From: Lactobacillus sp.
Lineage (GTDB): Bacteria > Bacillota > Bacilli > Lactobacillales > Lactobacillaceae
Direction of reading: 5' to 3'
Length of the DNA: 64,000 nucleotides
NCBI RefSeq assembly: GCF_051873315.1
Contig: NZ_JBJEES010000161.1
Coordinates: 1,019-65,018 of the forward strand
A model generated the notes under the pieces. The model was given only the letters and a program-made list of their open reading frames with translations, was not told the origin of the DNA and searched no databases. Below, piece by piece: positions 6,857-49,506 of this stretch. Made by a program: the position numbers and the translations under genes. Position 1 is the stretch's first letter, and the number at the start of each line of letters is the position of its first letter.

Positions 6857-8257
6857 ATGAAGAAAACAGCTATGGCAAAATACGAATCAGTGAACCCATA
6901 TACCAATGAAGTCTTCGCGAGCTACGAGAACCCGACTGACCAGCAGATTGAAGAATCTCTGGCCTTAGCCCACGCCCTCTACAAGAAGTGGCGGCATGAA
7001 GAACCGAGCAGCCGGGCAGCCATTTTGAAGGACATCGCGGCCAAGTTCCAGGAAAAGGAAGAAGAAATGGCCAAGACCATGACCCTGGAAATGGGCAAGA
7101 AGCTCAGCGAGGCCAAGGAAGAAGTTGAGATCTGCATCGGCATCCTCAACTACTACGCCGACCACGGCCCGGAACTTTTAAAGCCGGTCGACCTGCCCAA
7201 CCCATACGGCCGCGCCTACTACTTAAAGCAGGCTACCGGGGTGATCATGGCCTGTGAACCATGGAACTTCCCTCTTTACCAAGTCATCCGGGTCTTTGCC
7301 CCGAACTTCGTGGTCGGCAACCCGATGCTGCTTAAGCACGCCCACAATGTGCCAACTTCTGCTGCCCTGGCCGCCAAGATCGTGAAAGCTGGCGGGGCGC
7401 CGGAAGGCAGCTTGATCAACCTTTACCTCAGCTACAGCCAACTGGACCAGGTCATTGCTGATCCGCGGGTGCAAGGGGTAGCCTTGACCGGGTCTGAAAG
7501 AGGCGGGGTGTCCGTAGCCGAAAACGCCGGCAAGAACTTGAAGAAGTCCACTATGGAACTGGGCGGCAACGATGCCTTCATCGTCTTAAGCGACGCTGAC
7601 CCAGCAGTTTTGAAGGCAGCCTTGAGCGACGCCCGCAGCTACAATAATGGCCAGGTCTGCACCTCATCCAAGCGGATGATCGTTTTGGCCGACCGCTATG
7701 AAGAAGTTTTGGCAGACATGAAGGAAATCTACTCTGGCCTTAAGTGGGGCGATCCGCTGGAAGACTCCACTACCCTGCCGCCGATGAACTCCCAAGCCGC
7801 AAAAGAGAAGCTGGCCAAGCAGGTTGAAGCGGCAATTGCCGGCGGAGCCAAGGTTTACTACGAGTACCCGGAAATTGACGCCCCAGGTGCCTTCAGCCGG
7901 CCAATTATTTTGACGGACATGACTAAGGACAACCCAATGTTTGACCAGGAAATGTTCGGGCCAGTCTGCGTGGTTTACAAGGTTAAAGACGAGGCTGAAG
8001 CCATTGCCTTAGCCAACGACTCCAGCTATGGGCTGGGTTCTTCCGTCATCTCCAGTGATATCAAGCATGCTGAAGAAGTAGCCAGCCAGATTGAAACCGG
8101 GATGACAGTCATCAACGGCCGCTGGATCACTGACGGCAGCCTGCCATTCGGCGGGGTCAAGAAGTCAGGTTACGGCCGCGAGCTCAGTCCTTTGGGCCTG
8201 GACGCCTTCGTCAACGAGCACCTGGTGATCGACTTTACTGACCAAAACAAGCAGTAA
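6857..8257 (+). CDS. NAD(P)-dependent aldehyde dehydrogenase (succinate-semialdehyde dehydrogenase-like)
   Basis: 466 aa. ELGGNDAF (catalytic Glu), [11 protein letters not shown] (catalytic Cys) and the C-terminal [13 protein letters not shown] motif. Confidence 0.85.
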
Positions 8258-8420
8258 ACAGATCTAACTCAATCTCTTTCAATTACACTTACTTTTACTT
8301 TTTTCTTTTAATCTTTATTACATTACCTACTTTCTTTTTAGTGTTTCTTTTGTACTAATTCAAATTTTCTACTCTTTAGTTTTTGTTTTTTCACGAATCT
8401 CCAAGTAGAAAAATAGCAAG

Positions 8421-34920: not shown

Positions 34921-37200
34921 CTATTTTTCTGCAAAAGTTGCTTCGTCACTTGGCAAAAGCGGACTCTTTTCACCAGCGTAGACCAGGTCCAGCTTGTACA
35001 TGGCCCGGGAAGCGATCGTGTAGACCAGCTGGGTCTCGTCTTCTTCATGGTAGGTCTCTTTAGAGGCATCCCACATGATTACGGCGTCAAATTCCAGCCC
35101 CTTGGCCAGGTAGGACGGCAAGACCAGGTTGCCTTCCACCAGGCGCTGGTTGGCGCTGGAGATAAGGTGAACCCCATCCAGCTGGTCAGCCAGCTTTTTG
35201 GCAGCCTCCAGGTCCTTAGTGATGATGGCGGTCGTCAGCTTCTGGGCATCGTTTTCCGCCAAAGCCTCTTTCAAGGCCGCCAAAGCTTCTGCTTCATCAC
35301 TTCTGCCCCAAACTTGCGGCAGCGGTCCTTGCCGGTTGAAGCTTTCGATTTTTTCACCATGGCGGAGGATCTGCTTGGTGTAGTCAGTCAGCTGCTTGGT
35401 TGACCGGTAGGACTTGGTCAACTGGACCACCTTGGTCTTTTCCGGGTCAAAGAGGCCGGAGATCTGCTTTAAGAGGCTGCTGGACTCGTCTTTAGTAAAA
35501 ATCGCCTGGTTCAAGTCGCCCAGCATGGTGAACTTGGCCCGGGGGAAGTTGTAACGGAGATATGCCAGCTGGAAGGCTGAGTAGTCCTGGATTTCGTCGA
35601 TGAAGCAGTAGCGCATTTCCAGGTTGGTCTGGCGGGCAATGATCTGGTCATACAGATAGAGGTAAGCAGAAGCATCCCGGAGGTCAATTTCTTGGTCTTT
35701 GAACTTAGCCTTGACCTCTTCAACGTGGGCCAGCCATTCTTCTTCGCTGATCCCATACTTGGCCAGGTCCGTCATCTTCGGTACGGCCCGCAGAAAGGCC
35801 AGGTACTGGCCCCGCAGGTTCAAGAAGCCGTTGTGGTTGATCCGGCGGGCAACTTTGGCCAGATGCTGGATGACGATCTTTTTGCCCAGGAAGGCCCGTT
35901 CAGCCTTTTCTGAAGGGAATTCCTGGTCCGGCCGGTCGTACATGTCCAACATCTGCTCGTGGCTGAGCCCTTCGATTTCCCGGCTGACCCAGACCTTGCG
36001 GGCTTCACTGGCGACCCGCTTGTTCAAGCGGCGGATCAGTTCCTCGCGGGTAGCGTCAATCCGGTTGCCCAGCTTGTAGTTTTCATTGAAGGAGTAGTAG
36101 AGCTCCTTGATTTCTTCCTTGCTGAAAAATGGCTTCTTTTTGGTCCGGAAATAAATATTGCGGAAGATCATGCCAGACTGGTTGAGGTGCTGGCCATAGC
36201 GGGTGGCCAGCTTGTAGAAGGCCAGCGAGTCCTTGAAGCGGCCGATGGCCGTGTCAGCCTGCCGGTCTTCGAACTGGTCAAAGAGGTTCTGCACCTTCAT
36301 CTTCGGCAAGCGGCGGGCGATAAACTGCCAGTAAGTCATCTGGACCATGTTCTGCTCGCCCATTTCCGGCAGGACGTTTTCGATGTAGTCGTTAAAGAGC
36401 TGGTTGGGACTGAACATGATCACGTTCCCGCTCTTGAGGTTGCCCCGGTAGCGGTACAAAAGGAAAGCGATCCGCTGCAGGATGGCGCTGGTCTTACCCG
36501 ACCCCGCTGCCCCTTGGACAAAGAGGAGGTCGCTGGTGGTGTCGCGGATGATCTTGTTTTGCTCCTTTTGGATGGTCTTGACGATGGACTTCATCTGGAT
36601 GGAGGACTTTTCTGACAAAACTTCCATCAGCATCTGGTCGCCGATAGTTTCGTCAGTGTCGAACATATTGATGATGGTCCCGTCTTCGATCATGAACTGG
36701 CGCTTTTTGCTCATGTCGACTTCAACCGGGCCCTCCGGTGAGTAGTAGGTTACCTTGCCGATCTTGCCATCGTAGTAGATTGAGGAGATCGGGGCCCGCC
36801 AGTCGTAGATCAAGAGCTCATTGTTCTCGTCCATGAAGGAGGCCAGGCCGATGTAGATGCTTTCCGGCTCTTCGCCAGCCTCTTCAAAGTCGACCCGGGC
36901 AAAGTATGGATGGACATGCAGCCGCTTTAAAGTAGCCAGTTCGCGGGCGTTGACCTGCCAGGCATTGTCGCGTTCTTTGAGCATTTGCTGCTGCTGCTGA
37001 ATCGACAGGGCCGTGTCCATTGAGGTTGAGTAGTCGTCAAAGTCCAGGCGAATATCATCATAGAAGTGGGCGCTGATGTTGCGGGCTTCAGCCTTGTCTT
37101 TGCTGATAGCCTTTTGCAGCTGGTCCCCTTTTTGATCAATTTTTTGCAGGACCTGGTCCAGGTGGGCTTGTTCTGCTTTGCGGTCTAAGTTTTCTGCCAT
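34921..37200 (-). CDS. helD: UvrD-like helicase IV / RNA polymerase recycling ATPase HelD
   Basis: 759 aa. N-terminal coiled-coil arm, Walker A VQGAAGSGKTSAILQRIAFLLY, FIDEIQDYS, and the C-terminal UvrD_C-like EFDAVIMWD. Confidence 0.85.
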   Translation of the reverse strand: MAENLDRKAEQAHLDQVLQKIDQKGDQLQKAISKDKAEARNISAHFYDDIRLDFDDYSTSMDTALSIQQQQQMLKERDNAWQVNARELATLKRLHVHPYFARVDFEEAGEEPESIYIGLASFMDENNELLIYDWRAPISSIYYDGKIGKVTYYSPEGPVEVDMSKKRQFMIEDGTIINMFDTDETIGDQMLMEVLSEKSSIQMKSIVKTIQKEQNKIIRDTTSDLLFVQGAAGSGKTSAILQRIAFLLYRYRGNLKSGNVIMFSPNQLFNDYIENVLPEMGEQNMVQMTYWQFIARRLPKMKVQNLFDQFEDRQADTAIGRFKDSLAFYKLATRYGQHLNQSGMIFRNIYFRTKKKPFFSKEEIKELYYSFNENYKLGNRIDATREELIRRLNKRVASEARKVWVSREIEGLSHEQMLDMYDRPDQEFPSEKAERAFLGKKIVIQHLAKVARRINHNGFLNLRGQYLAFLRAVPKMTDLAKYGISEEEWLAHVEEVKAKFKDQEIDLRDASAYLYLYDQIIARQTNLEMRYCFIDEIQDYSAFQLAYLRYNFPRAKFTMLGDLNQAIFTKDESSSLLKQISGLFDPEKTKVVQLTKSYRSTKQLTDYTKQILRHGEKIESFNRQGPLPQVWGRSDEAEALAALKEALAENDAQKLTTAIITKDLEAAKKLADQLDGVHLISSANQRLVEGNLVLPSYLAKGLEFDAVIMWDASKETYHEEDETQLVYTIASRAMYKLDLVYAGEKSPLLPSDEATFAEK

Positions 37201-39539: not shown

Positions 39540-39691
39540 CGCGAATATATGAAGAGAGTTGCCTTAACGGGCAGCTCTTTTTTGCGTGGTATATCATAAG
39601 TTAATCGCTATATCAAGTATTGTATCCGGTTCCAGTGAGTGCTAAAATCGACTTGTCCAATATGTGTTAATGAATTAAGGAATGTGTGATT

Positions 39692-42031
39692 ATGAAGAAA
39701 ATTTCGAAAAATGTTCTGCTTGTATCATCAGTCGGTTTAGCTGGGTCTGCATTCGCGGTTACTAATACCCATCCGGTATTTGCGGCAAGCAGTACTAGCA
39801 AGAAAACTACTGTTTCCAGTGACCAAGCCAAGGTTAAAAGCGCGCAAAAGAGCGTTGACCAAACCCAAAGTAAATTAACCCAGGCACAAAACGATTTAGA
39901 TACTGTCAACAAAGATATGCCTCAAAAAGAGACTGAATTGGCAGATGCTAAGAAGACGACTGAAGCCGCTGATAGTAAAGTGGCGGCTGCGAATAAGAGC
40001 AACGATGCTGCACAGTCCGTTCTCAAGCAAGCTCAGTCAGCCACTGATTCCGCAAATAGCGACTACCAAAATGCCACCAAGGACAGCACAAACAAGCAAA
40101 AGGATTTGACTGACTCACAAAATAAAGTAACTGATCTCCAAAAGCAACTCACTGATGGCGAAAAGAACAATAACAACATCAACCAAAAAGTTACTGACAA
40201 GAACAAAAAGATTAGCGACAACCAGAAAACTTTGTCTAGCTTACAACAAGAAAAGAGTAAATCTGACGCTAAGCTTTCATCAGTGCAAAACGATCTTACT
40301 GAAAAGAAACAAAAGGCTGATATCGCCTCACAAACCTTGCAAACAGCCAAAAAGGATTTGGGTTCAGCAACTAGCACCAACGAAAGCTTGACCCTGCCAC
40401 AAAGCTACATTGACTATGTAACTGGCAAGTCAACTGATTGGGATACTGCCAAAAAAGACCTGCAAGATGCAGTAAGCAGCCACACTTATCCATTTACTGA
40501 TGGTGATGAAAACGATACTGTTTACGACGATCCTGCTGCCTTATCCGAAACTGATCAAAAGCGTTTGGACTTCTACGTGAAGAGCTTGATCGATTCCGTC
40601 AAGTCTCAAGTTGGATCAACCAGCAAGCTGACCATTACTGACGGTTCACTTGAATTCGCCAAGCGTTACACGCAAGAGTACCAAAACAGCAACTATGTCT
40701 TCAGAAAGTACAATGCAATCAAGTCCGCTTCAAGCATCATGGGACTTGATGAGTATTCCGTTACTGGATATGACATTGCCGCCAACAGACAAGTTACCGG
40801 TCGGTCCATTTCGATTATCAATGGGTACATATATAACTCATATGAATTTGGGACAACAAAGATGAGTGAAATTGCCAAGGCGGCTTTTGACTTGGTAACA
40901 CAAGAGCTGGCTAATCCAACTGATTACAACAATATCATCAACAACAATGGTTACTTCTCAGTTGCTGTAACTACCCAAGATGACAAGTTCTACGTCTGCC
41001 TTTTGACGATCAACCCGACTAACGTCCCAAGTAGTTTTAACACCAAGGAAGTTGTCAAGCCGAGTCAAGATGAACTTTCGTCTGCTGCTCAAAAAGCTCA
41101 AGCTGATTCGGATCAAGCAAACAAAGATGTAGAAAGCGCACAAAGCACTTTTGATCAAACCCAAGCTGAAAATCAAAAGATTAGCCAACAAATCAGCGAT
41201 TTGCAAAAGAAGATCAGTGACAGTCAAGGCGATGTAGCGTCCTTGAAGAAACAGCTTACTGACACGGATAAAATTCAATCTCAAATCAAGGAGACCAAGG
41301 ATTCCTTGCCAGCAAAGCAGGCTGCTCTGCAAGCTACGAATGAGAAGGTTAAAGCCACCCAAAGTAAACTTAATGACTGCAAGACTGCTTTAGCAGCCGC
41401 TCAGAAAGAAGCGGCAAATGCTCAAAGCAACTTGGACAAGGTAAAGGCTGACGCAAACAACGCACAACAAAAGCTCCAAACTGCTCAAAATGCCTACGAT
41501 GAAGCAAAGCAGAAGCAAGAAAAACTGACTGCATCTGTTGCATCCCTCACCAAGAAGCTGGCCTACGAAAAGAAGCAACTGGCACACGCTAAGGCGGTCT
41601 TAGCCCTTGCCCAAAGCAAGAAATCTTCTACTAAGAAAACTCCAAAGAAGGCCACTAAGAAGTTGACCAAGAAGACTATTAAGAAGTCCTCAAAGAAAGC
41701 AAAGGCCACCAAGAAGAAGGTTACCAAGAAGGTAAAGAAGGCTAAGAAAGTTGTTGTCGCAAGCAGCAAGTTCACCAGCTTAAAAGGCAGCAAGAAGGCC
41801 TTTGTCGGCAGCTGGAAGAAGGCTAAGTCCGTTTCCGGCTACCAGGTTCGCTACAGCACGGCTTCCTCAATGAAGAAAGCCAAGACTAAGAGCACCAAGG
41901 CAACCAAGCTTAAGGTTTCCGGTTTGAAGAGCAAGAAGAAGTACTATGTACAACTTCGCTCCTACCGCAAGCTCTCTGGCAAGACTTACTACTCTGCCTG
42001 GACAAAGGCCAAGACTGTCAAGACCCGTTAA
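39692..42031 (+). CDS. Secreted coiled-coil surface protein, SEC10/PgrA surface-exclusion-like, with a Lys-rich segment and a C-terminal Fn3-like domain
   Basis: Signal peptide (MKKISKNVLLVSSVGLAGSAFAV), Q/K/D-rich coiled coils on both sides of a globular core (LTLPQSYIDY...FYVCLLTINP), a KKxTKK-type basic stretch, then GYQVRYSTASSMKKAKTKS...YYVQLRSYRKLSGKTYYSAW. The SEC10/PgrA assignment is from memory. Confidence 0.55.
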   Translation: MKKISKNVLLVSSVGLAGSAFAVTNTHPVFAASSTSKKTTVSSDQAKVKSAQKSVDQTQSKLTQAQNDLDTVNKDMPQKETELADAKKTTEAADSKVAAANKSNDAAQSVLKQAQSATDSANSDYQNATKDSTNKQKDLTDSQNKVTDLQKQLTDGEKNNNNINQKVTDKNKKISDNQKTLSSLQQEKSKSDAKLSSVQNDLTEKKQKADIASQTLQTAKKDLGSATSTNESLTLPQSYIDYVTGKSTDWDTAKKDLQDAVSSHTYPFTDGDENDTVYDDPAALSETDQKRLDFYVKSLIDSVKSQVGSTSKLTITDGSLEFAKRYTQEYQNSNYVFRKYNAIKSASSIMGLDEYSVTGYDIAANRQVTGRSISIINGYIYNSYEFGTTKMSEIAKAAFDLVTQELANPTDYNNIINNNGYFSVAVTTQDDKFYVCLLTINPTNVPSSFNTKEVVKPSQDELSSAAQKAQADSDQANKDVESAQSTFDQTQAENQKISQQISDLQKKISDSQGDVASLKKQLTDTDKIQSQIKETKDSLPAKQAALQATNEKVKATQSKLNDCKTALAAAQKEAANAQSNLDKVKADANNAQQKLQTAQNAYDEAKQKQEKLTASVASLTKKLAYEKKQLAHAKAVLALAQSKKSSTKKTPKKATKKLTKKTIKKSSKKAKATKKKVTKKVKKAKKVVVASSKFTSLKGSKKAFVGSWKKAKSVSGYQVRYSTASSMKKAKTKSTKATKLKVSGLKSKKKYYVQLRSYRKLSGKTYYSAWTKAKTVKTR

Positions 42032-42055
42032 TCTAAAAATCAAACCTAATTCCAA

Positions 42056-42100
42056 ACAAAAACAGCTATCTCACGCTTCTACATGAGACAGCTGTTTTTT
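42056..42100. terminator. Bidirectional rho-independent terminator
   Basis: aaaaacagctatctca-cgcttctaca-tgagacagctgtttttt, between convergent genes. Confidence 0.65.
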
Positions 42101-44096
42101 AGTTCTCAACAACGGCGCTCATCGATGATACTAATTCCGCGTCGTTTAAGGTAACCTTGTCCGCACCATTTTTAATCATATCAGTAACGGCATCATCATT
42201 CTTGTAAACCGTCCAGATCCCATAGTCCACGCCATACTTGCGGGCCGCGAGAATATCATCCAGCGTCGTCGTATCCTTATTGCGGTCAGCACCAGCCTTT
42301 AAGTGGGACAGGAAAACGTAGTCATTGTCCGTCAAGTGACGGTTGTAAATCCCCATCATGGCAATTTCTTCACCGCCCGGAATCACGTTTCTGACTTCTT
42401 CCAGTTCACCAATATTAAAGGAAATCAAGGTCGTCTGCTTCTGCATCCCTGCCTCGTTAATTTCCTTAACTACCTCTTTCAAGGCCTCCATATTGTTGAT
42501 GTTCTTCAGCTCCAAAAAAGCTTCCTTGCCATACTTCTTGCAGATATCTAAGTACTGGCGCAAAGTTGGCAGATGCAGGTCATCATAAATCTGGTCCTTG
42601 TCGATTCCATCCAGCACACCCTTGATCTTGTAGTTTTCCACTTGGTCAAAAGGTATATCGTTGATCTTTTTGCCATAGTTTGGATCATTCTGACTGATAT
42701 CAGTTGTCCGCGCCAAAGTGTTATCGTGCAAAATGACCAGCTTGTTATCTGAAGTATTGGCCACATCGGTTTCAATCCCCCAGATGCCGGCTTCCTCGCC
42801 AGCTTTTTCAAAAGCCAGGGTAGTATTTTCCGGATACTTGGTGCTGTAGCCGCGGTGAGCGATAAACCTGACCGGCGCTTTAGCCGCGCCAGCAGTACTT
42901 TGCGTCTTCACATCAGCATTTTCCAGCCGGACCAGCTTGGCAATATCCCCAATTTCGCTTTCCGAAATCTCTGCCTGGTTGCTCTTTCTCACCATGATCA
43001 AGTACTTGTAGCCCGGATCCAGGATAATTCCCTGCTTTGACCAGTTGGCCTGCACGCCAACATAACTCGGCTTTTCATCATCGGTGTACTTGAGCGCCTT
43101 GATCTGGTAGTCAAAGTAATTGTCCAAAGCCAGGTACTTGCTCTGGTTCGCCTTAACATAGTCAACAGTCGTCAGTTCCTTTTTGCTTGGGTAAAAATTC
43201 CCCGCACTATCAACACCCCAGAGGCCCAGGTCCCTTTCTGGATTCGCGCTTACCGGCAGCTTGCGGTATTGGGCGTACAAGGTGACGTCTTTTAAAGCGT
43301 AACTATCGCCTAGATCATACTTTTCACCGCTGCCGTCAGCTTGCGTGTTAAAGGAGTCGAGGACGTAGCCGGGCTTACTGAAGCCTGTCTCTGGCAAGGT
43401 TGCCTTATCGCCTTCCTGCTCATGGAGAGTGATATTTTGCCCAAATCCCTGACCCGCGTCGATCTGAATCGTGTAGTTTTCCAGCTTGCGGTACTGGGCG
43501 TACAAGGTCGTATTCTTCTTAAAAGTGTAGGCCTTGCCCAGCCGGTATTTCTTCCCCTCTCCGTTTGCGGCAACGGTGTAATTTAAGAACTTATAGTCCT
43601 TTCTCTCGAAACTGGTCTTAGGCAGGGTTACCTTCTTGCCAAAGGAAAAAGTCAACACTTGCCGGCGGCCAGACCCGTCATTTGCTGCCAAAGTCAGTGT
43701 TCTTTTTGGAGAAGTCACCATAACCAGACAGGTGTAGCGCTTTTTGCCGTTTTTCGCGGTAATCTTGGCTGTCCCTGCCTTAATTGCCTTGACTCTGCCC
43801 TTGGAAGAAGCTGTGGCTACCTTCTTGTTGGAACTTTTCCAAGTTGTTTTCTTCTTGCTGTTCTTCAGATACAGGCGGGCAGTCTTTCCCTGCAGCAAGC
43901 TCAGCTTTTTCTTATTCAAAGAGACCTTTGCCTTTTTTGCTTTCTTGGCCTTCTTGCTCCTTTTCGCCTTCTTAACTTGCCGCGTGGCTTGCACCGGCTG
44001 CAGCGGTTCAAGTCCTTGCCCCAGTCCCAAAGCCAGCAAAATCGCTGAGGCCAGCAACAACTTTTTTCTATCTTTCCGTTTCTTCAAAAAATTCAC
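42099..44096 (-). CDS. Exported multidomain glycerophosphodiester phosphodiesterase (Lys-rich segment + Big_2-like + two Listeria-Bacteroides-type repeats + GDPD)
   Basis: Signal/TM segment and a KKAKRSKKAKKAKKAK stretch. Ig-like LSLLQGKTARLYLKN...KITAKNGKKRYTCLVMV. Two copies of ...GY.F/L..NT..DGSG.KY.LG..Y....D/NTTLYAQYRKL. C-terminal FIAHRGYSTKYPENT...ETDV...LVILHDNTLARTT. Confidence 0.8.
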   Translation of the reverse strand: MNFLKKRKDRKKLLLASAILLALGLGQGLEPLQPVQATRQVKKAKRSKKAKKAKKAKVSLNKKKLSLLQGKTARLYLKNSKKKTTWKSSNKKVATASSKGRVKAIKAGTAKITAKNGKKRYTCLVMVTSPKRTLTLAANDGSGRRQVLTFSFGKKVTLPKTSFERKDYKFLNYTVAANGEGKKYRLGKAYTFKKNTTLYAQYRKLENYTIQIDAGQGFGQNITLHEQEGDKATLPETGFSKPGYVLDSFNTQADGSGEKYDLGDSYALKDVTLYAQYRKLPVSANPERDLGLWGVDSAGNFYPSKKELTTVDYVKANQSKYLALDNYFDYQIKALKYTDDEKPSYVGVQANWSKQGIILDPGYKYLIMVRKSNQAEISESEIGDIAKLVRLENADVKTQSTAGAAKAPVRFIAHRGYSTKYPENTTLAFEKAGEEAGIWGIETDVANTSDNKLVILHDNTLARTTDISQNDPNYGKKINDIPFDQVENYKIKGVLDGIDKDQIYDDLHLPTLRQYLDICKKYGKEAFLELKNINNMEALKEVVKEINEAGMQKQTTLISFNIGELEEVRNVIPGGEEIAMMGIYNRHLTDNDYVFLSHLKAGADRNKDTTTLDDILAARKYGVDYGIWTVYKNDDAVTDMIKNGADKVTLNDAELVSSMSAVVEN

Positions 44097-44149
44097 TCCA
44101 TTTTCTTTTCCTGTTTATTAGATCAACACTTCTATTCTAGCGTATTTTG

Positions 44150-44196
44150 CCTAAATAAAACAAAACCAATGAACAAATCGCCTTTTGTCCATTGGT
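44150..44196 (-). terminator. Rho-independent terminator of the VanZ-OLD operon
   Basis: accaatgaaca...tgtccattggt hairpin, followed on the minus strand by ttttgttttattt. Confidence 0.5.
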
Positions 44197-44232
44197 AAAA
44201 TTTAATCTTGATTTATGTATAGTTGCTTTATG

Positions 44233-45753
44233 CTATATTTCATCGATAAAGCGGTCAATCTGCAGGAAGTATTCCACCAATTCCCGGTGCTTTTGCCCGT
44301 CTTTTTCATAGTAGTCCTGCAGATCAGCCAAATCCATCTGCTCCATCAGCTTGGAAGCAGTCTTATCCTTGCTCCAGCTCTGATGGCGCTGTTGCATCAG
44401 GTCATACATGTGCTGCTTAACGTCCTCGTAGGGCTCAAAGATATGAGTCTTCTTGCCTTCTTTAAAAACCAGATAGTTCTCAATCTCCCGCTTAAAAGTA
44501 GCATGGATATGGTCCTGCATCCCCGGGTATTTTGCCCTAATCCGGTGCAAGTGATGCTGGCTCTGCTTGGCTTCTGGCGTCCCTTTATCTGAATCAATCA
44601 AGATGAACCAGGGCTCATTTAGCTTAGAAAAAAGGTCAAAGTTCAGCCAGGCTAATAGACTTCCGCATCCCCCAACCGGCAAGATGAAGAGCCCTTTTTC
44701 AGCAAAAGTCGCCTCTACCATTCCAGCTTCATACATCCACTGGTTGATCTTGGTCACGAAACGAACGTCTTCCTGTCCTTCCACCAAGAGAACGCAGCGG
44801 GACTTGACTGCCCGCTGGTCTGCCGCCAGGCCCAAGCTGCTTGACGCTTCCGCCAAAATCTGGTTGTCACTTAAAAGCTGCTGCTGGCCGGCAACCTTCT
44901 TAATAATCTTAGTCCCTTCCAAAGGCAGAAGACCCATTAAGTGCGGCGTGCGCGGGATCAAAATAACCTGCTTGTTCTTGGCAACCAGCTTCAACAAAGC
45001 TTGAGCGAGCAAGGTCTCATCATCTTCTGACAAATCATTTGCTTCAAAGGCATAGACCACGTTGTCAATATTTGCGTTTTCGCTTTGGGCCAAAAGAAAA
45101 GACAGTATAATCCGGCTGACCTTGGCGGTCCCGCTTACCCCAACTTTTTCCTGCTGCTTGATCAATTCAGCCAAGTCTGGATCTTGAAAGACAAATTGGG
45201 GAGCCGGCTCGCCTAAGTCCCGGTAATTGGCCAAAAGCTGGGAAAGATTGCGGCCCAAACGTTCATCCAAGTAGTCCTGGATCTCCTTGATTTCGGCCGC
45301 CTTGTCGCGGATGGCGCTGCGGACCACAAAATTCAAAGGACTGGATGCCTTTGATTCTTCATCAAAAAAGACATACATCGGCATGCGGGCTAAAAGCTGC
45401 CGGTAATGTCCCCTGTTCTGGTCAGTGACAGCCGTAAATTCTCCTCCGCCTTCCGCGAAGCTATCACTTTCTTCAAGATATTGCTTGAGGTCAAAGGACT
45501 TTCTGATGGCAAAATCATCAAAGTAGCAAGTAATCGCAATTTGCCAGTCCCCAGCCTTGAGGGCTTTCTCATTAAGGTCCTGCAGTTTCAAAGGGCGCTT
45601 AGCCAAGGGACCGTTGAAAAAGATGTCCAAGGCCCGCAGAATGGTCTTCTTGCCAACTTCCCCTTCGCCCAAGAGACTGGTCAAGGGGGCAAATTTCAAC
45701 TTAAAATTGCGATAACCGCGAAAGTTATGCAGCTCAACCGCGCGCAGCAACAT
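44233..45753 (-). CDS. OLD-family-like protein: N-terminal ABC/SMC-type ATPase domain with divergent motifs plus a C-terminal TOPRIM domain
   Basis: N-terminus LRAVELHNFRGYRNFKLKF...LLGEGEVGKKTILRAL is the RecF/OLD-type start, with Walker A reading GK-K rather than GK-S/T. Signature-like VSGTAKVSRIILSFLLAQ. TOPRIM CVLLVEGQEDVRFV (Glu) and WFILIDSDKG (DxD). Confidence 0.65.
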   Translation of the reverse strand: MLLRAVELHNFRGYRNFKLKFAPLTSLLGEGEVGKKTILRALDIFFNGPLAKRPLKLQDLNEKALKAGDWQIAITCYFDDFAIRKSFDLKQYLEESDSFAEGGGEFTAVTDQNRGHYRQLLARMPMYVFFDEESKASSPLNFVVRSAIRDKAAEIKEIQDYLDERLGRNLSQLLANYRDLGEPAPQFVFQDPDLAELIKQQEKVGVSGTAKVSRIILSFLLAQSENANIDNVVYAFEANDLSEDDETLLAQALLKLVAKNKQVILIPRTPHLMGLLPLEGTKIIKKVAGQQQLLSDNQILAEASSSLGLAADQRAVKSRCVLLVEGQEDVRFVTKINQWMYEAGMVEATFAEKGLFILPVGGCGSLLAWLNFDLFSKLNEPWFILIDSDKGTPEAKQSQHHLHRIRAKYPGMQDHIHATFKREIENYLVFKEGKKTHIFEPYEDVKQHMYDLMQQRHQSWSKDKTASKLMEQMDLADLQDYYEKDGQKHRELVEYFLQIDRFIDEI

Positions 45754-45763
45754 GGTTTGCTCC

Positions 45764-46471
45764 TTAATCGGCTTGGTCGCCGTGTCTTTGCCGGTAGTCC
45801 TTCCGGCTCATCTTAACCTTCGGTACCTTTTCAGTTGGGTTGGCCAGTTGCCGGCTGACCCGGTCCAGGCGGGCAGCTTCCGCCTCCCCTTTAGCTTCAG
45901 CTTCCGCGTGTTCCCGGGCTTTGCGGAGTTTTCTTGCCTGGATGTCCCGCATCCACAAGGTTGGCATGATCGATACGGCTCCTAAGAAGGCACCGGTAGT
46001 GTTGGCGATCATGTCATTGACATCATACGTCCCCAGCCCGGTCAACCGCTGGAAATGTTCAATAAACCAGGACAGGCAGAAAGCCATAAAAGTGGTGATC
46101 ATAATGCTGTGCAGCCACTTGGACCAGGATGGAATAATATAGCCCAAGGGCACAAAAAGCAGCACATTCATCAAAAAGCCATAGCGGCCGCCATAGTTTG
46201 AGCTGGCAAAAACTTTTTTCAGCCCCCACTTCCAAAAGGCCGGGTCTTCCAAGACCTCAGAGCTAGCGGCCATTTTCACCGGGTGCTGCCAGTAGTAGAC
46301 GGCAGCCGTCAGCATTCTTGAGGCAAACACATAGTAAATTAATGCACAGCCATAGACAATCGTCACTACCAACCGCAAAAATGAGTTGCCCGTGCGGATG
46401 GCCCAATAGCCGGCAACCACACAGGCAGCAATGACCACAAAGCGGATCAGCAAAGCCAGTTCATGATACAT
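45764..46471 (-). CDS. VanZ-like family membrane protein with a charged cytoplasmic tail
   Basis: NVLLFVPLGY and DVNDMIANTTGAFLGA motifs, four to five TM helices, and a C-terminal REHAEAEAKGEAEAARL tail. Confidence 0.75.
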   Translation of the reverse strand: MYHELALLIRFVVIAACVVAGYWAIRTGNSFLRLVVTIVYGCALIYYVFASRMLTAAVYYWQHPVKMAASSEVLEDPAFWKWGLKKVFASSNYGGRYGFLMNVLLFVPLGYIIPSWSKWLHSIMITTFMAFCLSWFIEHFQRLTGLGTYDVNDMIANTTGAFLGAVSIMPTLWMRDIQARKLRKAREHAEAEAKGEAEAARLDRVSRQLANPTEKVPKVKMSRKDYRQRHGDQAD

Positions 46472-46675
46472 TCTTTTTCACTTCCCCTTACGAATTCCTT
46501 TTTACATATTTTATAACAATCAATTAGCTACCACAAAATTTAATAGTCCGCATATTGAAATAAAGATATTTTTTCTTCTCCATTCAGTCTTCAATTGTTT
46601 TATAATATTTTTAGTAAATGCTGTTAACTAATATATTATTGAATTTGAACGTTTTTCAATGGAAAGGAAAAAGTT

Positions 46676-48322
46676 ATGAACAGAATGCACTTCTCCTCCG
46701 GGAAGAAACTGCTGGCTGCTGGGGCTTTAGCTCTGGCTTTAACAGCCGGCGCTGCCCAGACAAGCCAATTCAAGGCTTTGCTACCGGGTAATGGCGAAGC
46801 CAAGGCTTTTTACGTGCCTACTGACGCTGAATGCCGGTACGTTATCAAGAGCCAGGCAGATATTGACAAGTTCTTTAGTCAGAATATCTTCGTCAGAGAC
46901 TCCCTGCTTGAATTCAAGTTTGAAAACTCCACTCCGATTAAGTTTCCAAAAGACGATGACTTGAAATTGATGCGAGGAGTCAAGTTTGACTTCACCGGCA
47001 AATCAACCGGCAACATTGACTTCAACGGGACCAAAATGATGATCAACCGCCGTTACGGCACCAAGAAAAAGATTGACTGGAATGCCGACTGGCCAGAAAC
47101 TGTCAGAACCAGCTGGACGGTTGAAGGTGACCACAAAGGTCAAGTCATCTCCAACTTAAACGTTTATGGTTCTATTGAAGGATCTGTCAACTCGAAAGGT
47201 GTCGTAACTTCTGACTACAATGGCGGTCTACAAGTTTCCATGCTCCACACCAAGAACGTAACCTTCAAGAATATGAACTTCCACCAAGTTCATTACTACA
47301 ACCGGCATGTCTTTGACGTCATGGGCTGCACCAATATTACTTGGGATGGTTGCCGCTTCTACGGCTACGCTGGTTCTGGCTTCAACCAGGCTGGCTGGAA
47401 TGCTATTTATTCCAAGAACAAAGATCCTCATGGCGTCTACTCAGAAGCTATTGAGCTTGGCGTTGCCACTAAGGCAGACGCTGGTGGTGACCCAAACGTT
47501 AATGAATCTATTTTTGGTAAAAATATGTACGACGGGGCTGGTACTCAAAATGTCACGATCAAAAACTGCTATTTCGGGCCTGAAAAGAATGGCTTGACTG
47601 GTGGTGCCATGATCAATGGCTTAGACAAACGAGCTACCTTCCCTTATGGATCATCTGTTGGTAACCACAGTATCGATGATGTAAGCAAGAAGTCACACTA
47701 CAAGAATCTGAACGTTACTAGTACTACTTTTGAAAACACTGCAGTAGCCACCAACACGACACCGACTTACTACAAGCACATGGCGCCTGTTCACTACCGC
47801 TACTCACCACTTGATACTCCTGCCCAGGTCAACTCCTTGACAGCAAGCAACAATACCTATATCAACGTTCTTGACCGCGGAGACAGTGGTATTCCAGATA
47901 CTTTAAGCGGACAAAATCGGCCGGTCTACAAATTAGATCTGGGTCTGCATAAGGCATGGTTCCGGAATGCGCCTGTTTACCTTGCGACAGTTTCAAATAA
48001 CTTCGCAAAGTTGAACTCACATGGCAGCAAGTACACCAAAGTTGTTTTGGCAAGTTCAGTTAAAAAGACCGCTCCTAAGAAGACTACTAAGAAGAAGGCC
48101 GCAACGAAGACTACTGCTAAGAAGTCAACTAAGAAAACTAGCAAGAAGAAAGTAGCTAAGAAGAAAGTAGCTAAGAAGACTACTGCCAAGAAAGCAACTA
48201 AGAAGGCTGCTAAGAAGACAACCAAGAAGGCTACTGCTAAGAAGACAACTAAGAAAAAGACTGCTAAAAAGTCAAGCAAGAAGAGCAAGAAGAGCACTAA
48301 GAAGACTTCCAAGAAGAAGTAA
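46676..48322 (+). CDS. Secreted protein with a probable right-handed beta-helix (polysaccharide lyase/hydrolase-like) region and a C-terminal poly-Lys/Thr/Ala tail of about 90 aa
   Basis: Signal peptide MNRMHFSSGKKLLAAGALALALTAGAAQ. Recurrent N-[VI]-T-[FIW]-x-N/G-C rungs (NVTFKNMNFH, TNITWDGCRFYG, NVTIKNCYFG, LNVTSTTFEN). Tail KKTAPKKTTKKKAATKTTAKK...KKTSKKK. The fold call is an inference. Confidence 0.5.
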   Translation: MNRMHFSSGKKLLAAGALALALTAGAAQTSQFKALLPGNGEAKAFYVPTDAECRYVIKSQADIDKFFSQNIFVRDSLLEFKFENSTPIKFPKDDDLKLMRGVKFDFTGKSTGNIDFNGTKMMINRRYGTKKKIDWNADWPETVRTSWTVEGDHKGQVISNLNVYGSIEGSVNSKGVVTSDYNGGLQVSMLHTKNVTFKNMNFHQVHYYNRHVFDVMGCTNITWDGCRFYGYAGSGFNQAGWNAIYSKNKDPHGVYSEAIELGVATKADAGGDPNVNESIFGKNMYDGAGTQNVTIKNCYFGPEKNGLTGGAMINGLDKRATFPYGSSVGNHSIDDVSKKSHYKNLNVTSTTFENTAVATNTTPTYYKHMAPVHYRYSPLDTPAQVNSLTASNNTYINVLDRGDSGIPDTLSGQNRPVYKLDLGLHKAWFRNAPVYLATVSNNFAKLNSHGSKYTKVVLASSVKKTAPKKTTKKKAATKTTAKKSTKKTSKKKVAKKKVAKKTTAKKATKKAAKKTTKKATAKKTTKKKTAKKSSKKSKKSTKKTSKKK

Positions 48323-48462
48323 TTCTTCACTCTAACTCTCAAAGTCCGTCAGCAAGGCTGGCGGGCCTTTTCTTTGCTCTGCATCCCAGTACAATTTGTG
48401 TTATCATTTTCTACGGTATTTTTGAAAAATCGTTATTATCAGCAACAGAAAGAAAAACAAAC

Positions 48463-48891
48463 ATGGACAAAGAAAAATTCAACGAATTATGGGACAAGTA
48501 CAAGGACATCATCCCCTACGTCTTCTGGGGCGTCATGACCACCCTGGTCAACATCTTCTCCTACTGGCTTTGCAACAGCATTTTCAAGTGGGATATCATG
48601 CCGGCAACGATCATGGCCCAGTTCCTGTCGATCGTTTTTGCCTACTTGACCAACCGCAAATGGGTTTTCCACAGCCAGGCTTCCACCTTTAAGGAATACG
48701 CCAGCGAAATCGCCAGCTTCTTCGCGGCCAGAATTGGGACTGCCCTCTTGGACATGGCCATCATGTTCATCTTCGCTGAACAAATGCACTTAAATAGCAT
48801 GATCATCAAAATCCTGGCCAACGTGGTCGTCGTTATTGTCAACTACGTGGCTAGCAAGTTCTGGATCTTCAAATCCAAAGACTCAGAATAA
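48463..48891 (+). CDS. GtrA family membrane protein (lipid-linked sugar translocation-associated)
   Basis: 142 aa with four TM helices and YLTNRKWVFHS / NYVASKFWIFK motifs. Confidence 0.85.
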   Translation: MDKEKFNELWDKYKDIIPYVFWGVMTTLVNIFSYWLCNSIFKWDIMPATIMAQFLSIVFAYLTNRKWVFHSQASTFKEYASEIASFFAARIGTALLDMAIMFIFAEQMHLNSMIIKILANVVVVIVNYVASKFWIFKSKDSE

Positions 48892-48999
48892 CTCATTTGG
48901 ATTAATTGCTAAGAAATGGTAATTATTCCGGCTAAAAGTTTCAACTAGTGCATTTTCGTGTTAATCTTGTAGGCAGTTTAACAGAGAGGAAGGGTGAAA

Positions 49000-49449
49000 A
49001 TGCGGAAAAGAAATATGATTTTAGCCTTTTTGGGATGTCTGGGGTCAATCCTCTTGATCAGCGGCTTGACTTTCCAGAATTCCGGCCAGTCAGCCCAGCT
49101 GACCTTGAAGTTTGTCAACTTGTTTGAGAAGGTCCATTTTCACTTAACCGGTACTATGGTGGCTGAGTATCCGATCTACCACATGATGCGGAAGCTGGCC
49201 CACACGGCTGAGTACTTCCTGCTCGGCGCCAGTGCCTGCTACTTCTTCAGCCGCTGGCAAAAGCGCTATGCCTGGTCAGCCCTGGCCCTGTCAGCCGCCT
49301 GGTCTCTCTTTGACCAGACCAGCAAGCTGCTGGTTCCCGGCCGGGAATTCGACCCAACCGACTTTCCTTTCGACATCGCCGGCTACCTGCTCGGGATCGG
49401 CTTGATCCTCTTGCTCCAGCGGCCATGGGCCAAGCGGGCCGTCAACTAA
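49000..49449 (+). CDS. VanZ-like family membrane protein
   Basis: MRKLAHTAEYFLLG and DPTDFPFDIAGYLLGIG motifs. The ATG at 49000 follows GAGGAAGGG. A GTG at 48994 is an alternative start. Confidence 0.7.
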   Translation: MRKRNMILAFLGCLGSILLISGLTFQNSGQSAQLTLKFVNLFEKVHFHLTGTMVAEYPIYHMMRKLAHTAEYFLLGASACYFFSRWQKRYAWSALALSAAWSLFDQTSKLLVPGREFDPTDFPFDIAGYLLGIGLILLLQRPWAKRAVN

Positions 49450-49476
49450 GGCGCTAATACAATTTGCTAATTACTA

Positions 49477-49506
49477 AAAAGAGTGCTTTCGCGGCACTCT
49501 TTTTTC
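49477..49506 (+). terminator. Rho-independent terminator
   Basis: aaaaagagtgc-tttcgc-ggcactctttttt. Confidence 0.6.

Follow-up and report, generated by a model that had tools for sequence, protein, structure and literature searches.

OLD proteins are normally described as nucleases that are powered or gated by ATP and that are carried on mobile defense elements, and the locus analyzed here raises the question of what becomes of such a protein when its ATPase motifs are lost and its gene is a fixed resident of the chromosome. We analyzed a stretch of 64,000 nucleotides (nt) from Lactobacillus sp. (NZ_JBJEES010000161.1, positions 1,019–65,018), hereafter called the window, in whose positions all coordinates are given. 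Two minus-strand open reading frames (ORFs) in this window, which is part of a Lactobacillus delbrueckii chromosome, encode a VanZ-family membrane protein of 235 amino acids (45764–46471; VanZ) and, next to it, an OLD-type protein of 506 amino acids (44233–45753; the OLD protein). The original prediction, made from the letters of the sequence, regarded the two genes as a candidate two-gene phage-defense module. The explanation that we favor as a whole, and hold with moderate confidence, is that the 506-amino-acid protein is a chromosomally fixed, vertically inherited, ATPase-degenerate derivative of the stand-alone Class 1-type OLD nucleases, with a non-hydrolytic ATP-binding cassette (ABC)-like domain and a nuclease that acts in defense, and that VanZ is independent of it.

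The ABC-like and TOPRIM halves of the OLD protein

The OLD-type ABC-ATPase/TOPRIM identity proposed for the protein was borne out by a hidden Markov model search, in which AAA_15 matched residues 1–93 with 53.9 bits (cut-off 32.1) and OLD-like_TOPRIM (PF20469) matched residues 318–389 with 27.1 bits (cut-off 23.2). An AlphaFold2 model built from a 57-sequence alignment had a mean predicted local distance difference test (pLDDT) score of 82.9, exceeding 90 for residues 1–130, and the N-terminal half had the ABC/AAA_15-type ATPase fold of the OLD family. In a Foldseek search with this model, the best match in the PDB was the Class 1 nuclease Ts OLD from Thermus scotoductus (6P74; E = 3.7e-19), followed by GajA and then by the OLD protein of retron Eco8; Rad50 heads were also among the fold matches. 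Similarly, the family profile matched Ts OLD at 1.4e-27, GajA at about 1e-17 and PARIS AriA at 1e-7. A profile restricted to the clade aligned to the PDB sequences over the N-terminal 45 residues only, and the broader 57-sequence profile (A3) was used for mapping the motifs onto Ts OLD by alignment, with residue roles taken from PMC7049728.

This mapping indicated that most of the ATPase chemistry had been removed. The Walker A Lys (K34 in Ts OLD) is kept as K35 and the Walker B acid (E276) as E237. In contrast, the Mg-binding Walker A Ser/Thr (T35) is replaced by K36, the catalytic Glu (E277) by A238, the D-loop His (H283) by D244 and the H-loop His (H310) by R268. Every eroded motif quoted in the original prediction was located (GEGEVGKKT at residues 29–37, VVYAFEAND at 232–240 and LIPRTPH at 265–271). 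The alignments added three deletions to that account: the signature loop (RGSGxRR in relatives), the Q-loop segment (KxDRESS; the Q-loop assignment is by alignment only) and about 100 amino acids of the N-lobe. Alteration or deletion thus affects five of the six ABC motifs, and to judge from the sequence the protein does not have the motifs of a catalytically competent ABC domain. With a Lys for the Walker A Ser/Thr, deletions of both the Q-loop segment and the signature motif and, in L. delbrueckii, substitutions of the catalytic Glu and of the His residues of the D-loop and H-loop, the aligned motifs show a domain that would be unable to act as a canonical ATP-hydrolyzing, ATP-sandwich dimer.

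The TOPRIM half presented the opposite picture. The metal-binding Glu and DxD noted in the original prediction lie in LLVEGQED (residues 322–329) and LIDSDKG (residues 385–391), and E325, D329, D387 and D389 align to E377, D381, D431 and D433 of Ts OLD. In a 13-sequence alignment (A1), E325, D329, G361, G362, D387, D389, K421 and E425 were invariant; in the 57-sequence alignment, E325, D329, K421 and E425 remained invariant, and G361, G362, D387 and D389 were at least 90% conserved. The KREIENY block (K421, E423, E425) is conserved across the same 57 sequences, and E423 and E425 probably serve as metal B ligands. These alignments show the retention of what appears to be a complete two-metal site of the OLD type, with the Glu, the DxD and the putative second-metal ligands.

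The erosion of the ATPase half is clade-wide and far beyond chance. Among the 247 relatives from outside the clade that had 450 amino acids or more, GK[ST] was found in 240, the signature [RK]GxGxx[RK] in 239 and the Walker B pattern h[DE]EP[ED] in 246, whereas none of the three was found in any of six clade representatives, which extend down to 47% identity. When 1.84 billion cluster representatives were searched exhaustively with HMMER, this degenerate type accounted for just two clusters at 50% identity, and the closest intact relative (P0126, 603 amino acids, 34% identical) has every motif intact. Within the clade, G29, G34, K35, K36 and T37 are invariant, again down to 47% identity. The ratio of nonsynonymous to synonymous substitution rates (dN/dS), calculated against L006, L007 and L008, was 0.044–0.047 for residues 1–300 and 0.038–0.060 for residues 301–506, which shows that both halves are under strong purifying selection; the protein is therefore a maintained pseudo-ATPase rather than a product of decay or drift. 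The Walker B FEE is still present in L. equicursoris, L. porci and the most divergent (47%) branch, and the H-loop His in L. porci and that branch, so the last steps of the erosion are specific to L. delbrueckii and L. nasalidis. The clade represents a natural experiment, in which the ATPase chemistry was stripped away while the fold, the altered P-loop and the nuclease site were selected throughout the history of the lineage.

We compared the protein with the known classes of OLD systems. Class 1 comprises Ts OLD, P2 Old, Vc OLD and E. coli YbjD/OldB, and Ts OLD is the top match in both profile and fold among solved structures; the ligands of metals A and B are kept in common, neither a helicase, a reverse transcriptase nor a split AriB adjoins the gene, and YbjD is likewise a chromosomal, non-mobile copy. 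The protein differs from this class in the missing N-lobe segment and ATPase motifs described above, whereas Ts OLD, P2 Old and Vc OLD hydrolyze or require ATP. PADLOC gave only partial matches for the OLD protein, to its GajA, AriA and Old models. Gabija GajA (Class 2) also combines an OLD-type ATPase with a TOPRIM domain and was the second-best structural and PADLOC match, but it keeps canonical Walker motifs, and its PADLOC matches cover only parts of our protein. No UvrD/PcrA-like GajB lies directly downstream, where a terminator is followed by the gene of a Big_2-GDPD surface protein. A UvrD-like gene 7 kb away (34921–37200) has partial GajB matches; it is a full-length HelD, an RNA polymerase recycling factor (NCBIfam equivalog, 755 bits against a cut-off of 419), in housekeeping synteny, and the Gabija reading was rejected.

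PARIS (AriA/AriB, Class 4) has the logic of an ABC ATPase alongside a TOPRIM domain in common with the OLD protein, and merged single-gene forms of it exist. Full-length relatives of about 600 amino acids matched the PADLOC AriA model PDLC02979 from end to end with 192–219 bits. The AriA model has 373 positions and Pfam AAA_15 has 374, so that such a match is probably generic, and since the model also matches proteins without a significant AriB match, an AriA match alone is not specific to PARIS. The TOPRIM half of our protein matches OLD-like_TOPRIM and not DUF4435/AriB; a search for DUF4435/AriB in the TOPRIM halves gave no significant match (best E = 0.002, in P0068 only). With no AriA–AriB pair of the DUF4435 type and a profile match of 1e-27 to Ts OLD against 1e-7 to AriA, a merged PARIS was discarded. 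A retron (Class 3) was likewise rejected, as no reverse transcriptase domain was found among the neighbors and no Rfam match in 41000–49500 at E ≤ 0.1.

Distribution, inheritance and proposed role

Close homologues of the OLD protein were limited to L. delbrueckii, with 580 sequences in a 90% cluster, to L. nasalidis, L. equicursoris and L. porci, and to a single uncultured Lactobacillus lineage from read-archive assemblies, which is the 47% branch mentioned above (L019 2548–4799, L020 and L002). GTDB species representatives outside the delbrueckii clade had no match. Orthologues of VanZ had the same range except for the uncultured lineage, that is, the delbrueckii clade only. Identity to the window sequences dropped in parallel for the two proteins (93/87/73/67/47% for OLD and 96/85/72/69% for VanZ), and the neighboring HelD, GDPD, HisPhos and M10 proteins had identities of 86/83/74/67% (L. 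equicursoris) and 72/68/75/55% (47% branch). In all five lineages the OLD gene lies in the same chromosomal region, near GDPD, HisPhos, M10 and HelD, and its GC content (0.49) equals that of the window. This composition, the synteny and the identity gradient speak against a recent horizontal acquisition; a phage or plasmid origin of this copy was rejected for lack of any close copy in phage, plasmid and viral collections. The gene is therefore vertically inherited at a syntenic, non-mobile cell-envelope locus, and neither the variable presence, the mobile or defense flanks nor the atypical composition of a defense island or mobile cargo was observed. This syntenic, host-GC region is not a variable defense island, and the findings largely match what the original prediction had itself named as speaking against it.

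Two side observations concern the hosts. The contig of the 47% branch also carries SlpA and helveticin J genes, and its host is therefore an S-layer-type Lactobacillus, which was not found among the GTDB species representatives. L011 (JAEDAG010000003.1), labelled Faecalicatena absiana YH-C36a, is a 248-kb contig that carries genes of Lactobacillus type in synteny with the window; the OLD protein encoded there falls into a cluster with those of L. porci, so the label looks wrong or the assembly contaminated.

The motif-intact relatives are found on mobile DNA, where they stand alone (a Rep3 plasmid and 288 conjugative plasmids). Among the nearest intact relatives, P0126 (L016 6001–12992) lies in a putative defense island with a UvrD-like helicase and DarT/NADAR (DarTG), and P0068 (L018 1–6827) is Tn7-like (TnsC/TniQ) cargo adjoining copper-resistance genes. 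The simplest history would be that a mobile stand-alone OLD gene was captured by an ancestral Lactobacillus chromosome and later remodelled, which would make the clade a bacterial example of an OLD gene turned fixed chromosomal resident.

The gene is dispensable, being neither essential nor universal. In L013 (Lactobacillaceae bacterium AF64-9pH9TA, 7271–8400), a delbrueckii-like genome, VanZ is intact and 96% identical, and only remnants of OLD are left after deletions of about 900 bp and about 200 bp. In subsp. bulgaricus, the records P0294, P0298, P0304 and P0306 contain OLD only as short ORF fragments with a premature end (...HMYDF) or an out-of-frame start; P0294 occurs on 34 contigs. These fragments fit pseudogenization of OLD in this dairy subspecies. 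In dairy L. delbrueckii, the state of the gene, intact or pseudogene, could have a bearing on how sensitive strains are to phages.

As for the role of the protein, its ABC-like domain would now serve regulation or act as a scaffold, without hydrolyzing ATP. A phosphate or nucleotide ligand may still be bound, to judge from the invariant G-x4-G-K-K-T loop and from Glu237 of Walker B, which was kept, and the working model that we propose is the nucleotide-binding gate of GajA, without hydrolysis. Once this restraint is lifted, the TOPRIM domain would cleave nucleic acid (by nicking or degrading DNA, or cleaving tRNA), most likely as a defense against phages or other DNA that invades the cell. 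GajA does not hydrolyze ATP, whose binding inhibits or gates its nuclease (PMC10568477); the nuclease activity of Ts OLD is independent of ATP (PMC7049728); and the K35A variant of YbjD is more toxic yet retains the anti-phage phenotype (PMC13261556). Given these precedents, a mechanism free of ATP hydrolysis is reasonable, and the clade could reveal what the ABC domain of OLD proteins does apart from hydrolysis, be it sensing, scaffolding or autoinhibition.

Several points weigh against this explanation. P2 Old and Vc OLD depend on their ATPase, so a domain with dead motifs could mean an altogether different activity. The fixed, syntenic, species-tree-like inheritance is atypical of defense genes and resembles that of the non-defense archaeal OLD protein Cran1. 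Additionally, VanZ and OLD remain tightly coupled in three species, and the motif in the VanZ tail, described below, is strongly conserved.

The second of these points leads to the best of the competing explanations, which we nevertheless consider unlikely: that domestication has turned the gene to a task of the host, for instance DNA repair or the processing of chromosomes or RNA, and that it no longer acts in defense, as has been proposed for Cran1 (archaeal OLD clade U11). Its vertical inheritance, synteny, host-like GC and strong purifying selection, together with the absence of mobile and defense genes nearby, are all consistent with this, and Cran1 provides the precedent of a taxonomically homogeneous and restricted, vertically inherited OLD clade that has a cell-cycle role and lies apparently outside mobile defense islands. 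However, Cran1 is essential and requires its active, potent ATPase domain, whereas our protein is without ATPase motifs and its gene is dispensable: outside the delbrueckii clade it has no match among GTDB species representatives, and inside it the gene is in fragments in subsp. bulgaricus and has undergone deletion in L013.

VanZ as neighbor or partner

The VanZ protein matched Pfam VanZ (PF04892) with 55.2 bits (cut-off 30.1; 1.4e-14) and has about five transmembrane segments and a charged C-terminal tail of about 65 amino acids (residues 172–235), which by the positive-inside rule would be cytoplasmic. Read against the VanZ-1 motifs (PMC12419801), its putative active-site residues are N102, E138xxQ141 and D150-V-N-D153-M-I-A-N157, and the match to the DxDDxxxN motif is partial (DxND). 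The VanZ-1 lipocone family has in common with it the H2 Asn, the ExxQ and the D-x-x-D-x-x-x-N, and was linked to exopolysaccharide and teichoic-acid loci in a 2025 survey (PMC12419801). The VanZ of the window likewise lies among genes of glycopolymer or teichoic-acid type, with GtrA, a second VanZ, an acyltransferase, two GDPD proteins and surface proteins as neighbors and no mobile or defense genes nearby. It differs from that family in its lineage-specific charged tail with a conserved motif and in the translationally coupled nuclease gene that comes next. Here, VanZ would be a lipid-head-group enzyme of the surrounding teichoic-acid or glycopolymer locus; in the L. delbrueckii group it would be transcribed from the same promoter as OLD, whose function would not require it.

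The claim that no described system pairs an OLD protein with VanZ was supported: PADLOC gave no match for VanZ, and the words OLD and Toprim never occur in the broad survey of VanZ neighborhoods (PMC12419801). The pairing also separates this gene from the Class 1 OLD genes, as it is co-transcribed with a membrane-protein gene in one lineage. The alternative explanation is that VanZ and OLD are a true two-component defense module, in which the VanZ tail anchors, restrains or activates the nuclease, coupling envelope events such as phage adsorption and DNA injection to nucleic-acid cleavage, and in which the tether to VanZ replaces the lost control by ATP. We rate this as decidedly unlikely, although a number of observations are in its favor. 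In L. delbrueckii, L. nasalidis and L. equicursoris the genes are 9–18 nt apart (10 nt in the window), with the VanZ stop codon inside the Shine-Dalgarno sequence of OLD; the two proteins share their phyletic range, and their clusters are of similar size; and the tail motif GEAEAARLDRVSRQL is invariant in these three species, with one or two end substitutions in L. porci, despite an overall identity of 66–94% (alignment A5). Furthermore, only OLD is lost while VanZ is kept, as expected of an OLD toxin restrained by VanZ, and perturbed ATP binding raises the toxicity of YbjD, so an ATP-blind OLD protein might need another restraint.

However, the pair did not prove to be conserved as a pair. 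All cases of co-occurrence belong to one vertically inherited lineage (L. delbrueckii, L. nasalidis, L. equicursoris and L. porci) and thus represent a single evolutionary event, which does not sustain the functional module of the original prediction. Even within this lineage VanZ is directly upstream of OLD in three species only; in L. porci a 14-bp hairpin and the genes tal (transaldolase) and cpsB come between them. In the 47% branch, whose ATPase is degenerate in the same way, VanZ is missing: a divergent DedA gene lies upstream, and a downstream AIM24-family gene, to which OLD is coupled in place of VanZ, overlaps the OLD stop codon by 4 nt. OLD decays alone in L013 and subsp. bulgaricus. 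The canonical relatives are stand-alone, and none of the four that we examined has VanZ as a neighbor. In addition, VanZ keeps the lipocone active-site residues and lies in a predicted envelope-polymer context. VanZ therefore looks like a neighbor of OLD and not a required partner.

A bolder version, which we regard as speculative and very doubtful, is that in the L. delbrueckii group an ATP-blind, intrinsically active OLD nuclease is restrained at the membrane by the conserved cytoplasmic tail of VanZ as a lipid-modifying enzyme, that phage adsorption or injection at teichoic-acid receptors perturbs VanZ and frees the nuclease, and that AIM24 is the partner in the sister branch; if true, this would be a membrane-tethered abortive-infection module of an undescribed kind. 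The last alternative, a remnant, now in decay, of an old mobile OLD system, with loss of motifs meaning loss of function, would accommodate the five altered or lost ABC motifs and the pseudogenes in several lineages, but is most improbable in view of the full-length ORF kept among species diverged to 47% identity, the dN/dS of about 0.05 in the eroded half too, and the invariance of the altered P-loop GKKT itself and of the TOPRIM catalytic residues.

Layout of the locus and its surroundings

The features of the unit are summarized in Table 1. Direct reading of the VanZ/OLD junction (GAT-TAA-GGAG-CAAACC-ATG), with the OLD ATG at 45753, placed the start codon 6 nt past AAGGAG as originally described. 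The description of an insulated two-gene unit also stood, as the ORFs, the AT-rich upstream spacer (46472–46675; 24.5% GC against 49.5% for the window) and the downstream terminator were all verified. As far as can be read from these signals, the two genes are one transcription unit, predicted to be co-transcribed and translationally coupled.

Table 1. Features of the VanZ–OLD unit in the window.
Feature	Position	Strand	Basis
Promoter-like site, TTGAAA-18 nt-TATATT	46630–46659	-	10/12 consensus matches; inside the 24.5% GC spacer
VanZ-family membrane protein gene, 235 amino acids	45764–46471	-	Pfam VanZ
AAGGAG Shine-Dalgarno sequence of the OLD gene, overlapping the VanZ stop codon TAA (45764–45766)	45760–45765	-	Read directly
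OLD residues 1–300, degenerate ABC-ATPase-fold domain (putative pseudo-ATPase)	44854–45753	-	AAA_15, AlphaFold2 model, alignments, Ts OLD mapping
Altered P-loop GEGEVGKKT, residues 29–37	45643–45669	-	Alignments
OLD residues 301–506, OLD-type TOPRIM nuclease domain and C-terminal helical region	44236–44853	-	PF20469 on residues 318–389
E325-G-Q-E-D329, metal A Glu and metal B Asp (Ts OLD E377, D381)	44767–44781	-	Alignment; roles from PMC7049728
D387-S-D389, DxD metal A ligands (Ts OLD D431, D433)	44587–44595	-	Alignment; roles from PMC7049728
Intrinsic terminator, ACCAATGGACAAA...TTTGTTCATTGGT, 13-bp stem, 6-nt loop, TTTGTTTTAT T-run tail	44165–44196	-	Sequence

Several genes around the unit were also characterized. 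The GtrA gene and the short second VanZ (151 amino acids) form a pair at 48463–49449, which is kept in L. nasalidis and L. porci. Between this pair and the unit, 46676–48322 encodes a secreted 548-amino-acid protein with a basic C-terminal tail rich in Lys, Thr and Ala and no Pfam match. On the other side, 39540–44270 contains the genes of a 781-amino-acid coiled-coil/fn3 surface protein and a 665-amino-acid protein with Big_2, Listeria-Bacteroides-repeat and GDPD domains; KKAxKK-rich regions resembling the tail of the 548-amino-acid protein are found in both and may be cell-wall anchoring tails. L. equicursoris lacks the 781- and 665-amino-acid protein genes between OLD and GDPD, and the 665-amino-acid one is also missing in L. 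delbrueckii L006; they are a variable surface-protein insertion beside a stable VanZ–OLD unit.

The unit itself is more divergent than its surroundings among L. delbrueckii genomes, with 86–89% DNA identity in the VanZ–OLD block against 91–95% in the conserved flank at 34.9–39.8 kb. The synonymous divergence (dS) between the window and other L. delbrueckii (L006 and L007) was 0.79–0.87 for OLD and only 0.28–0.35 for the adjoining VanZ. Together, these values suggest deep allelic lineages or recombination at the OLD gene.

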